The position numbers and the translations under genes were made by a program. 64,000 bases of DNA from Octopus vulgaris (lineage: Eukaryota). Below, piece by piece: positions 1,622-52,804 of the stretch. Each line of letters begins with the position of its first letter. The first letter of the stretch is position 1. The stretch spans positions 68,510,001 through 68,574,000 of the forward strand of contig OX597830.1 of the NCBI GenBank assembly GCA_951406725.2. Direction: 5' to 3'. The notes beneath the pieces are model-generated. The model was not told the DNA's origin. It saw nothing but the letters and a program-made list of their open reading frames with translations, and made no database searches.

Positions 1622-1796
1622 GGACTGAAGCCTGTAGACTATTCCATACAAACTAATTCTAAAGAAGAAATGTATGCATTGGATCCTAATCATTCACATT
1701 TTATCCTTGTTGATGATGGTACCAAAGACAATTTTGGAGAAATAATTGAATTCAGAAAAAAGTTAGAACATACTATTTCACAAGAGAAAATCCCAG
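1622..1796 (+). CDS. TRPM-like exon A (SLOG/MHR1-2): [58 protein letters not shown]
   Basis: ttgatttctag| acceptor and |gtaagt donor; 175 nt, phase 0->1; [14 protein letters not shown] is the hallmark TRPM SLOG motif. Confidence 0.93.
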
Positions 1797-52700: not shown

Positions 52701-52804
52701 TATCTGATAATGAAAATAAAGTGGCTGACATGAAAAAAGTGAAAACCATTGGTATTGCACGGTGGAACTGTGTACAAAACAAAGAATCCCTAGTGAATAA
52801 GGAG
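1622..52804 (+). CDS. Multi-exon TRPM-family (TRPM2-like, transient receptor potential cation channel subfamily M) gene segment: 9 exons encoding SLOG/MHR1-2 N-terminal modules; gene extends beyond both ends of the modelled part
   Basis: Exons 1622-1796, 17145-17254, 25465-25553, 26855-27038, 31111-31205, 33295-33332, 37123-37207, 43942-44122 and 52641-52804 all have AG/GT ends. Phases chain 0-1-0-2-1-0-2-0-1-0. Peptides carry TRPM motifs [26 protein letters not shown], LxWN, WIPENI, DAFGEV, PNLLISV.GG and AWII. One 1-nt frameshift lies in the fourth exon. Confidence 0.88.
5255..5630 (+). mobile_element. Solo 3' UTR fragment of RTE-type LINE ending in (GAT)n
   Basis: Same sequence (gttaggaagggcatc...gcatggaaagc.gacgttaaatgatgatg) follows the RTE ORFs at 24850-25310 and 15200-15385. 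Confidence 0.75.
5819..6050. repeat. (TA)n microsatellite
   Basis: Direct reading. Confidence 0.95.
6341..6431 (-). ncRNA. Hammerhead ribozyme motif, mirror copy in left arm of fold-back
   Basis: Reverse complement of 6560-6650 with intact core. Confidence 0.7.
6560..6650 (+). ncRNA. Type I hammerhead ribozyme motif (Penelope-type)
   Basis: cctacg-CTGATGA-[long stem II region]-GAAA-cgtacg-TC-cgtagg: stem I cctacg/cgtagg, palindromic stem III, GUC site. Confidence 0.75.
6829..7460. repeat. (TA)n/(TATACA) microsatellite interrupted by ~140 bp unique insert (7158-7298)
   Basis: Direct reading. The insert has CTGATGA...GAAA on the minus strand and may be a Penelope pLTR scrap. Confidence 0.85.
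7480..8634 (+). pseudogene. Penelope-like ORF C-terminus (Asn-rich linker + Cys motif + GIY-YIG), in-frame TAG at 8455-8457
   Basis: The 325-aa ORF continues in frame after TAG (expected Trp) as [27 protein letters not shown]...LLN...CVH to TGA at 8632-8634. Confidence 0.82.
10136..10226 (+). ncRNA. Type I hammerhead ribozyme motif in Penelope 3' pLTR
   Basis: ttttag-CTGATGA-gtacgggaca...tgtccttgtat-GAAA-cgattg-TA-ctaaaa: stems I and II pair, quasi-palindromic stem III, GUA site. Confidence 0.75.
10452..10763 (+). mobile_element. 3' end fragment of CR1/L2-like LINE with (TTTAAGGA)n tail
   Basis: [18 protein letters not shown]...[14 protein letters not shown] is homologous to the end of the ORF at 11014-12198; flanked by (TA)n. 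Confidence 0.8.
10808..12295 (+). mobile_element. 5'-truncated CR1/L2-like LINE reverse transcriptase with (ATCA)n tail
   Basis: [66 protein letters not shown]. Confidence 0.92.
12411..15385 (+). mobile_element. RTE-type LINE 3' end with a tandemly amplified 3' UTR, (GAT)n tail
   Basis: [25 protein letters not shown]...RLRWYGHV...GRGRPRKT, followed by ~6 related 330-450 bp units and a GAT tail. Confidence 0.88.
12940..15215 (+). repeat. Complex tandem array of RTE 3' UTR units (including a near-identical 447-bp pair) with ~30-bp subrepeats gtgtgacacttgtgaagacctgttgaggcaa
   Basis: Unit starts (gtgaaaatcaaa) near 12978, 13380, 13827, 14153, 14524 and 14861; identical short ORFs lie 447 bp apart. 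Confidence 0.9.
15384..15892. repeat. ~500-bp (TA)n microsatellite
   Basis: Direct reading. Confidence 0.97.
15900..16740 (+). mobile_element. Diverged RTE-type LINE 3' end with (GAC)(GAT)n(CAT)n tail
   Basis: aaagtggttggtgttaagaagaacatctggctgtagaaacc resembles the RTE 3' UTR; GAT repeats follow. Confidence 0.5.
16900..17130. repeat. Degenerate ~23-bp minisatellite (tactttaaccaggtatattt-like) immediately upstream of exon B
   Basis: Recurring ttaa(t/c)caggta(t) motifs. Confidence 0.55.
17145..17254 (+). CDS. TRPM-like exon [38 protein letters not shown]
   Basis: ttttag| acceptor, |gtcagt donor; 110 nt, phase 1->0; matches the TRPM IPxVxxxxxGGPGT...PVVxV motif. Confidence 0.92.
18420..20770 (+). 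mobile_element. Degraded RTE-type LINE (APE endonuclease, partial RT, 3' UTR), internally deleted
   Basis: DAFNGHVG...[17 protein letters not shown]...[25 protein letters not shown]; 3' UTR and GAT tail at 20620-20766. Confidence 0.8.
22070..22285 (-). mobile_element. Probable Penelope pLTR fragment with degenerate hammerhead motif (~22168-22202)
   Basis: The minus strand reads gttt-TTGACGA-agagctccactc-GAAA-catt-aaac; it starts next to TA/TG repeats. Confidence 0.45.
22680..25312 (+). mobile_element. 5'-truncated RTE-type LINE (RT with stops/frameshifts, 3' UTR, GAT tail)
   Basis: [67 protein letters not shown]. Confidence 0.92.
25465..25553 (+). CDS. TRPM-like exon [30 protein letters not shown](R)
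   Basis: ttatcag| acceptor, |gtttgt donor; 89 nt, phase 0->2; (G/D)SGRAAD motif. Confidence 0.9.
26855..27038 (+). CDS. TRPM-like exon D with a 1-nt frameshift: [61 protein letters not shown]
   Basis: ttctaag| acceptor, |gtaaga donor. The exon is 184 nt where 185 are needed for phase 2->1, and the frame switches at gaaaagggatag (~26913-26924). LLTVY...D...FKAVFK resembles the TRPM LLTVF...D.AIL.ALLK segment. Confidence 0.8.
27625..27818 (+). mobile_element. SINE copy (same family as 34144-34359), diverged
   Basis: aaggcagcaaactggcag...tgggtgaaatgctt...gcctagagta.aaaagaat matches the 34.2-kb copy. Confidence 0.65.
27820..27915 (+). mobile_element. 5' head fragment of tRNA-derived SINE (family of 30624-31060)
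   Basis: tggctgtggtaagaagcttgcttcccaaccacatg..ccaggttcagttccactgc.tggcaccttg.gcaagtgtcttcta. Confidence 0.65.
27950..29860 (+). mobile_element. Degraded R4/Dong-like (RLE) LINE fragments separated by a (TAA)n tract at ~29020-29090
   Basis: HIMNEC...HDQVVKVLH and [20 protein letters not shown]...LLGTARIIR lie before the TAA tract; RPITCL.TMYKILT and EQK.CK...CKDQ.LI lie after it. Confidence 0.65.
30121..30215. repeat. (CTC)n(CTA)n compound microsatellite
   Basis: Direct reading. Confidence 0.9.
30624..31060 (-). mobile_element. Near full-length tRNA-derived SINE with internal (TA)/(TG) tract and (GAGTAAAA)-like tail
   Basis: The minus strand starts gtggctgtgtggtaagtagcttg...ccgggttcagtccc (A/B-box-like) and ends ggcggtgctccagcatggccgcagtc...aagagtaaagag. 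Related heads occur at 27820 and 39908. Confidence 0.8.
31111..31205 (+). CDS. TRPM-like exon E (start of MHR3): [32 protein letters not shown]
   Basis: tattacag| acceptor, |gtaaga donor; 95 nt, phase 1->0; resembles TRPM QLxLAxxWNRxDIAxxxIF...W. Confidence 0.85.
31582..31734 (-). mobile_element. Short pLTR-like insert between (TA)n tracts with minimal hammerhead-like motif (31686-31723)
   Basis: The minus strand reads ctgt-CCGATGA-acggcaacgg-GAAA-ctcagag-TA-acag, a U4C core variant. Confidence 0.5.
33295..33332 (+). CDS. TRPM-like exon F (N-terminal start of next module): [12 protein letters not shown](R)
   Basis: ttttttttattttcag| acceptor, |gtaatt donor; 38 nt, phase 0->2; WIPENIK matches the TRPM2 N-terminal WIPENIKK motif (recalled from memory). 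Confidence 0.8.
34144..34359 (+). mobile_element. SINE with 14-bp target-site duplication
   Basis: tattaaatatgagt occurs at 34130-34143 and 34360-34373; internal B-box-like gagttcaaattcc. Confidence 0.82.
37123..37207 (+). CDS. TRPM-like exon [30 protein letters not shown]
   Basis: tttgatag| acceptor, |gtaatt donor; 85 nt, phase 2->0; PxDAFGxxxF motif of TRPM MHR1. Confidence 0.88.
37880..38060 (+). mobile_element. Short RTE RT remnant
   Basis: VQEKYLAK...KTFDRDP.SLIWWS.RKL resembles 23540-23700. Confidence 0.5.
38501..38572. repeat. (TA)n microsatellite
   Basis: Direct reading. Confidence 0.95.
38920..39800 (+). mobile_element. Degraded Penelope-like element 3' part (GIY-YIG)
   Basis: [18 protein letters not shown]...[13 protein letters not shown]...EHIERC...FTVFPFY; degenerate hammerhead-like tgtc...gaaaccagtcgaca near 39688-39720. 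Confidence 0.7.
39908..40060 (+). mobile_element. tRNA-derived SINE 5' part (family of 30624-31060)
   Basis: aggcgcaggaattactgtgtaataagtagcttgcttatcaaccacatggttccgggttcagtccc...gaaagaagcctgtcgta. Confidence 0.7.
40690..43590 (+). mobile_element. Old, heavily degraded RTE-like LINE (APE + RT), GC-richer than flanks
   Basis: [31 protein letters not shown] and a decayed YADD (DLKYEND), with many stops. Confidence 0.65.
43942..44122 (+). CDS. TRPM-like exon [61 protein letters not shown]
   Basis: tacatatag| acceptor, |gtaaaa donor; 181 nt, phase 0->1; VRV...W...PNLLISVxGG...LVKAAxTT is TRPM MHR1. Confidence 0.93.
44152..44246. repeat. (TAC)n(TAA)n compound microsatellite just downstream of exon H
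   Basis: Direct reading. Confidence 0.92.
44450..47570 (+). mobile_element. R4/Dong-like RLE LINE, degraded and internally deleted, ending at (TAA)n
   Basis: [78 protein letters not shown], then a jump to [10 protein letters not shown]...[11 protein letters not shown]. Confidence 0.82.
47600..48440 (+). mobile_element. Two stacked 3' fragments of R4/Dong-like RLE LINEs separated by TAA repeats
   Basis: GSLGMIKKG...[18 protein letters not shown] (47600-47735) and [19 protein letters not shown]...LIDLSV..DKNI (47935-48300). Confidence 0.75.
48441..48543. repeat. (TAC)n(TAA)n compound microsatellite
   Basis: Direct reading. Confidence 0.92.
48546..50250 (+). mobile_element. R4/Dong-like LINE, 5'/RT portion, truncated by an RTE fragment
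   Basis: [71 protein letters not shown]. Confidence 0.82.
50251..50850 (-). mobile_element. RTE-type LINE APE endonuclease fragment
   Basis: [47 protein letters not shown]...GFGSRNGE. Confidence 0.85.
52641..52804 (+). CDS. TRPM-like exon [56 protein letters not shown]
   Basis: tgttttgcag| acceptor, |gtaaat donor; 164 nt, phase 1->0; AWIIxxG...GVxKxxGEA...IGIAxW TRPM motif. Confidence 0.93.

Follow-up and report, generated by a model that had tools for sequence, protein, structure and literature searches.

Channels of the TRPM-beta group, among them those of Nematostella and zebrafish, human TRPM2 and the cephalopod protein XP_036366346, share an N-terminal LSDAT_euk/MHR1-2 unit, MHR3/4 (PF25508), an Ion_trans domain, a TRP box and a coiled coil. 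Repeated N-terminal units on a TRP channel are familiar from TRPA1 and NOMPC, in which the unit is the 33-amino-acid (aa) ankyrin repeat, and two TRPM gene models, one from the jellyfish Sanderia (P0086) and one in RefSeq (XP_072049890, P0219), carry tandem LSDAT_euk domains ahead of one channel. SLOG domains also occur in Thoeris ThsA, where an effector is switched when the domain binds a nucleotide signal (10.1101/2022.09.19.508568), and four melastatin domains have been called a consistent TRPM feature (PMC13143021). Here we describe a TRPM gene from Octopus vulgaris. The window, a stretch of 64,000 nt (C17 68510001-68574000), holds the middle part of a larger gene, in which two half-modules of a repeated N-terminal cassette are visible and which extends both ways. 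On balance, we favor the view that this is an Octopus-specific TRPM-beta whose repeated cassette is likely spliced to one channel, predicted to be Ca2+-dependent, and whose diversifying array likely senses ligands other than plain ADP-ribose (ADPR), most likely in host-pathogen conflict. About 2.0 Mb around the gene family was examined; its copies are named c1-c8, coordinates of exons are in window numbering, and positions past 64000 continue that numbering.

Nine exons of a repeated cassette

The window contains nine exons, all with AG/GT ends, whose phases from A to I run 0-1-0-2-1-0-2-0-1-0. With the adjoining introns that matter here, they are as follows (residue numbers are those of human TRPM2).

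1622-1796, + strand: exon A, module-1 type, phase 0-1; SLOG core, with an 11-residue stretch at the Y295 position and the R302 equivalent
1797-17144, + strand: hybrid A-B intron, 5' part of module-1 type and 3' part of module-2 type
17145-17254, + strand: exon B, module-2 type, phase 1-0; GGGPGTLKS, the start of the phosphate-binding helix, intact
25465-25553, + strand: exon C, module 2, phase 0-2; DSGR, with the R358 equivalent retained
26855-27038, + strand: exon D, module 2, phase 2-1; helical end of MHR2, one G lost near 26913
31111-31205, + strand: exon E, module 2, phase 1-0; opening MHR3 helices (LEWNKPDV)
33295-33332, + strand: exon F, module 3, phase 0-2; 38-nt mini-exon at which the TRPM N-terminus starts again
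37123-37207, + strand: exon G, module 3, phase 2-0; DAFGEV, lacking the Cys-rich stretch of canonical cephalopod TRPM-beta
43942-44122, + strand: exon H, module 3, phase 0-1; start of SLOG, with TRPM2 TGGAKNF replaced by IGGREDV
52641-52804, + strand: exon I, module 3, phase 1-0; AWII..GVVK, with V at the M215 equivalent
52805-64000, + strand: beginning of the module-3 I-A intron, which runs past the window end

An earlier reading of the window, made from the sequence only, had proposed that a TRPM N-terminal cassette is repeated in frame without an intervening channel, and this description holds. The peptides it quoted all lie where it placed them, and its canonical splice ends stand, with the acceptors of exons G and I shifted by one base relative to the flanks first given. 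The cassette is symmetric (phase 0-0) as proposed: the nine exons total 1121 nt, and one added base gives 1122 nt, or 374 codons. That base, lost from a purine run in exon D, is a lesion private to the window copy, since the frame is intact in all six other copies. Exons A, H and I, the three scanned, each pass the LSDAT_euk cut-off (Pfam, PF18139) singly, and the mini-exon F is present in 7/7 copies. The sequence-only reading had also allowed for a misassembly between 31.2 and 33.3 kb. The E-F junction region (30500-34000) aligns at 94-98% to all six other copies, unbroken across the junction in three and interrupted by one intron indel in the other three, and a local misassembly is thereby ruled out. 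Exon A of the window is 98% identical to module-1 exon A of c1, and exons A and H each have at least 29 matches in the genome, 28 of them on C17.

From module array to channel

When the flanks were searched for further repeats and transmembrane exons, as that reading had advised, both were found around the window.

Upstream of the window: module-1 exons F-I
67007-79063, + strand: module-3 exons A-E, downstream of the window
Near 85161, + strand: spacer mini-exon, downstream of the window
93507-93606: scaffold gap of 100 N, downstream of the window
96281-139814, + strand: channel exons, pre-S1 to coiled coil, after the scaffold gap

The connection between modules and channel is clearest in c6 (C17 79.62-79.25 Mb, minus strand), which is free of gaps from the modules to the channel stop codon. 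Its order is module 1/2 hybrid, module 3, module 4, ten linker mini-exons, module 5, MHR3/4, S1-S6, TRP box, coiled coil and stop, with AG/GT ends and matching phases from the first module to the stop codon; the linker exons are alternating phase 0-2 / 2-0 mini-exons that resemble F and G. The window copy is colinear with c6 on both sides of its gap, with 96-98% identity up to the final base ahead of the gap and 97-99% identity from the base that immediately follows, and about 198 kb of c6 corresponds to the interval at that gap. The post-gap contig likely belongs to the same copy as the window modules. MHR3/4, six transmembrane (TM) helices and a TRP box thus lie in the same gene in gap-free c6, and across a scaffold gap in the window copy. 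Both c6 and the downstream exons of the window copy contain TEEIHQ and WNIIDV, whose E..Q and N..D residues we take, from TRPM4 and TRPM2, to form the S2-S3 Ca2+ site. The selectivity filter reads YAE where TRPM-beta has YGE. No Pfam match to NUDT9-H was found in P0011 or P0048, and c6 stops after the coiled coil; the domain is also absent from canonical cephalopod TRPM-beta. We infer one gene with five modules, whose product would comprise about 2,700 aa from 70 reference exons, plus N-terminal repeats, and that four to five cassettes are spliced in frame to one downstream channel is a conclusion we hold with good confidence.

The family comprises seven 5' ends and five close channel copies on C17. 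Of the seven module arrays, six either continue into the channel or end at a scaffold gap or no more than one intron length from it; the remaining array, that of c5, was followed to module-4 exon B (69.07 Mb). In c1, the end of the linker, module 5 and the channel sit on a contig that lies in inverted orientation between two gaps, directly after module-4 exon B. c2, covered except for 30 kb in the region of its linker, reaches module 5 and then a gap, c3 ends 18 kb before a gap where the expected intron is longer, 28 kb, the gap of c7 falls between module-3 exon A and pre-S1, and c8 begins at a gap inside the linker, with exon V aligned only in part. The sequence-only reading had offered an array of channel-less TRPM N-terminal genes as one possibility; the scaffold gaps explain where the arrays end, and we have rejected it. 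Of its other possibility, a poly-SLOG protein either soluble or fused to a distant channel, the fusion stands, as c6 runs into the channel, and the purely soluble form is not supported. Two local features of the assembly were also recorded. The inverted contig of c1 (C17 67565374-67695502, 130 kb) lies on the strand opposite to modules 1-4 and is probably mis-oriented or misplaced, and in c5 module-4 exon G is duplicated (C17 69025748 and 69031476).

Annotated proteins show the same array in pieces. A query with exon H returned eight longer proteins, all labelled Octopus. Comparison with other cephalopods, which the sequence-only reading had called for, yielded four-SLOG proteins in two annotations: O. 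sinensis XP_036366249 (P0001) and O. bimaculoides LOC106871768 (P0002, P0009) have four LSDAT_euk stretches and no channel domain, and the annotation corresponding to the window exons is P0005, labelled O. vulgaris. The repeat architecture is conserved in three Octopus species. P0009 ends by read-through of module-4 exon B, and the next O. bimaculoides accession, XP_052830018 (P0054), takes up at module-4 exon D and continues through the linker and module 5 to S1-S2. Only exon C is missing between the two models, and O. sinensis P0004 contains it. A domain scan of the four-SLOG models found no enzyme domain, and a ThsA-like SLOG protein, coupled to an enzyme and lacking a membrane domain, does not fit an array that channel exons follow in phase. 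Among 219 proteins, 17 have at least two long modules (12 from Octopus, 5 from others).

Several further models were noted in the same comparison. The O. bimaculoides channel model is cut short at a stop reached by reading through a 21-nt alternative exon that follows the S1-S2 exon (C17 79289540-79289602, L045). Two-SLOG models outside Octopus (P0086, P0219, P0091 and P0170) come from jellyfish, another animal (XP_072049890) and a metagenome record, and are independent. In the jellyfish and XP_072049890 modules the Ala of GGAKN is changed in 4/4, to Lys or Arg in three, like the octopus modules. As parallels we set aside P0083, which is labelled contamination and fragmentary, and the oyster model P0085, in which the second SLOG follows MHR3/4 and two genes are probably fused.

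Crossover, descent and divergence

Exons A and B of the window derive from different ancestral modules. The 5' part of the intron between them is 97% identical to the module-1 A-B intron and its 3' part is 96% identical to the module-2 A-B intron. Because the intron is of module-1 type at its start and of module-2 type at its end, an in-register crossover between A-B introns must have deleted one cassette. The same hybrid junction flanks are present in c6, and the module-1/2 hybrid type accounts for four of the seven 5' ends. Other fusions are seen in O. sinensis protein models only: module 1/5 in P0048, which has a single SLOG and a channel, and module 3/4 in P0004.

In a tree built under LG+G4 from 41 rows, with no clade test and with six hybrid, partial or metagenome rows excluded, the modules fall within cephalopod TRPM-beta. 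All 18 module rows group in a single clade (99/97), itself part of an Octopus-only clade (100/100) that also contains two single-SLOG paralogues. Each module groups O. bimaculoides with the vulgaris group, and by this topology the five modules are shown to predate the bimaculoides/vulgaris split. The two single-SLOG, Octopus-specific paralogues lie with the canonical gene at C17 42.9-43.1 Mb and 44.24-44.33 Mb; they already have GGRK in place of GGAK and have lost M215.

Divergence between copies was counted over 2369 codons, excluding the diverged module-4 exons after the second gap of c1. We found 451 nonsynonymous, 76 synonymous and 0 nonsense alleles, where the intron spectrum predicts 367, 139 and 21; the absence of stops from 527 substitutions has a probability of 4e-10. 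Introns counted identically, as a control, gave a nonsynonymous/synonymous rate ratio (omega) of 0.94-1.09 and 220 stops in 4092 events. By maximum likelihood (ML), omega in the 5' modules came to 1.68 (p=0.004; 726 codons, 7 copies), and that of module 5 together with the channel to 1.96 (p=0.0003; 946 codons, 5 copies). Counted on private alleles alone, omega was still 2.0 (p=0.0003). The nonsynonymous excess is significant in modules 1, 2 and 4, MHR3/4 and the TRP-box region, and not significant in modules 3 and 5, the TM part and the linker. Between species, the modules are 78-82% identical in protein sequence vs 94% for the canonical gene; canonical TRPM-beta is compared here by protein identity and the intron control in place of a DNA-level omega. 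As far as these substitution patterns can tell, the genes are alive and diversifying across recent copies.

The introns of the window hold further sequence of other kinds. Complex tandem repeats (33-, 62-, 398- and 447-nt units) occupy 12947-15219 of the hybrid intron, close to the crossover region. Fragments of reverse transcriptase, together with one of Pif1 helicase 2B that may be Helitron-like, lie at 10939-12195, 23200-23781 and 54970-55536. The I-A intron contains two tandem copies of a non-long-terminal-repeat (non-LTR) retrotransposon (57383-61687 and 61935-63711), with a CCHC zinc-knuckle region of the first open reading frame (ORF1) and an 812-aa open frame for endonuclease and reverse transcriptase. 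Since this intron measures 14 kb in the window copy vs 2-5 kb in six other copies, the insertion is likely recent. A scan for tRNA genes found none.

The ADP-ribose site and competing explanations

An AlphaFold model of modules 1 and 2 (P0007; pLDDT 72.7, pTM 0.54) has two TRPM N-terminal folds with a low-confidence linker between them, and its best PDB match is human TRPM2 6puu (E 5e-25). In human TRPM2, the ADPR molecule is flanked by Y295 and the b5-a3 loop, and R358, R302 and the N-terminus of a7 also belong to its site (PMC6759353). Two preprints add M215, G333, T336 and T339. Mutants of contacting residues lose current, and in human MHR1/2 M215A and R358A reduce binding without abolishing it (10.64898/2026.03.30.715250). 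We infer that the b5-a3 loop is TGGAKN. Canonical cephalopod TRPM-beta retains the site, with F at 295, and in the array M215 and TGGAKN are altered in all five modules. Module 1 keeps F295 and R302, and has lost GPG and, in the vulgaris group, R358. Module 2 keeps GPGT and R358 and has lost the Y295 loop; modules 3-5 are without R358 in every row covering the site and mostly have Glu at G333/G335, in the phosphate loop. In module 5, the one next to the channel, only R302 and T336 of the tested residues remain. The most contacts of any module are found in the 1/2 hybrid, the first module of the window, which combines F295, R302, GPGT and R358 (it lacks M215 and carries Y295F and T339S). The full human site (M215, Y295, R302, G333, T336, T339, R358) is complete in no module.

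Under the reading we favor, one long mRNA would run from the modules to the channel, and the tetramer would carry 16-20 clamshells. Gating would act through module 5, placed where MHR1-2 sits in solved TRPMs, with Ca2+ acting at the retained S2-S3 site; because the ADPR contacts are lost, the S2-S3 Ca2+ residues kept and NUDT9-H absent, the channel is predicted to be Ca2+-dependent and not gated by ADPR at module 5. The upstream modules may be extra binding sites or decoys that tune opening, and the clamshell array would bind changing intracellular ligands other than plain ADPR. Given the architecture, we judge conflict-type sensing evenly poised. A possible immune role is suggested by the cytosolic domains, copy-number change, omega above 1 and SLOG biology elsewhere, and nothing further. 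More tentatively, and with the likelihood on the low side, the gene could be a new intracellular immune receptor, in which a chain of four or five SLOG clamshells, reshuffled by crossover, would detect nucleotide signals derived from pathogens or TIR and open a Ca2+-dependent pore, an animal counterpart of Thoeris with the channel as effector; hybrid modules would then rebuild or retune the nucleotide pocket.

Several observations weigh against the favored reading. No transcript was seen that links one module to another or the modules to the channel, and the five short proteins found in a search for transcript-derived proteins across the module 2/3 junction are all genome annotations. A look-up of RNA data for the E-F stretch listed none, though small shares of matching RNA would escape it. 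Among the 219 proteins, no annotated one combines a channel with more than two modules, the number found in P0011. Six Octopus models end within module 4, five at exon B (P0009, P0067, P0003, P0047, P0068) and one at exon I (P0001), and a real early end there is possible. The 309 exon copies (36 kb) contain 12 single-base indels, none shared between copies and most located in short base runs; four are in c6 and one is in the window copy, and no full-length copy is lesion-free in this assembly. The copy pairs c5/c7 and c3/c6 (0.5-0.8% genomic divergence) may be alleles. A counting estimate of omega above 1 between modules (1.2-1.7) was abandoned, as ML gives 1.07 between the five modules, not different from 1 (p=0.53). 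Gene conversion also inflates exon divergence, as roughly half of the minor alleles coincide with another module.

The early ends in module 4 would also be expected if the main product were a soluble protein with four SLOGs, terminating in the intron downstream of exon B, that buffers nucleotides or modulates the channel in trans, the linker, module 5 and channel forming a separate transcript. P0009, P0001 and P0067 have no hydrophobic segment, and the B4-C4 intron is long (28 kb in c6). However, the downstream O. bimaculoides model begins mid-domain, at exon D, the reading frame of c6 stays open and in phase through exons C4, D4, E4 and the linker, and annotation produces read-through ends where an exon is missing. 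We consider such a product unlikely as the main one, although it could be a minor isoform. The sequence-only reading had also raised a multivalent sensor of ADPR or cyclic ADP-ribose, with every clamshell binding ADPR and the channel more sensitive or cooperative as a result. The retained SLOG fold, the hybrid pocket in over half of the 5' ends, with F at Y295, and the residual binding of M215A and R358A would allow it, but most modules have lost ADPR contacts of the kind that human TRPM2 needs for current, and we therefore find this proposal doubtful and quite improbable.

That the repeats form a long cytosolic lever or thermal sensor, like the ankyrin chains of TRPA1 and NOMPC, perhaps in octopus skin or suckers, is very improbable. 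TRPM-beta contains sensory channels (the clade of TRPM2/4/5/8; PMC13143021), a low-confidence linker joins the predicted modules, and degenerate pockets are compatible with a structural role; but a lever leaves unexplained both an omega near 2 among recent copies and the speed at which copy and module numbers have changed. That the array is merely a decaying cluster or an artefact of assembly, with duplicated pseudogenes or unpurged haplotypes, scarcely seems credible. The array does contain gaps, one inverted contig, two close copy pairs and one-base frameshifts in 11/309 exon copies, the window's included. Against decay stand the missing stop codons, in-frame indels in 24 exon copies (in introns, multiples of three make up only 221 of the 688 multi-base indels), and annotation of the same modules in two other species. 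The frameshift rate in exons is about one third of the intron rate per copy, and the one-base indels are probably mostly consensus errors. If the frameshift of the window copy is real, that copy is truncated in module 2 and the allele could be dead.

The gene thus goes beyond what the sequence-only reading saw, and is best read as a TRPM-beta whose clamshell array is repeated four or five times and evolves under diversifying selection. In the literature searched, which leaves out most subscription papers, we found no description of a multi-SLOG TRPM, nor mention of six accessions or gene ids of this family. The latest family-wide study (PMC13143021) uses the 3' half of the gene only, XP_052830018, entered as an ordinary TRPM-beta in its Table S1, and LOC106871768 is absent from that supplement; PMC13402157 excluded incomplete models, and its main text contains no SLOG, LSDAT or MHR term. 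Split annotation as two separate genes hides the architecture, and surveys that drop incomplete models would miss the array. With up to five MHR1-2 clamshells per subunit, the gene raises the question of how a TRPM would fold and gate with 16-20 such domains, and its modules are natural variants of the ADPR pocket for studies of ligand specificity. A gene-wide omega of about 2 in an ion channel points to a role in conflict and makes it a candidate immune or sensory innovation of octopus.

Compared with TRPM-beta, the octopus gene has four or five MHR1-2 units instead of one, with an acidic mini-exon linker before the last. It also has no Cys-rich stretch and no NUDT9-H, most ADPR contacts are lost, the filter is YAE and omega exceeds 1. 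The two-SLOG TRPM models differ in having two modules only, products of independent duplications (100/100 and 100/99, on long branches) in unverified gene models. The repeat is a whole 370-aa clamshell of ligand-binding type, in contrast to the 33-aa ankyrin unit of TRPA1 and NOMPC. Changes in repeat number and copy number are also features of rapidly evolving immune receptor arrays. ThsA, in turn, is bacterial and has a single SLOG with a SIR2 NADase effector; its likeness to the octopus gene, whose ligand is hypothetical, is one of functional analogy only.

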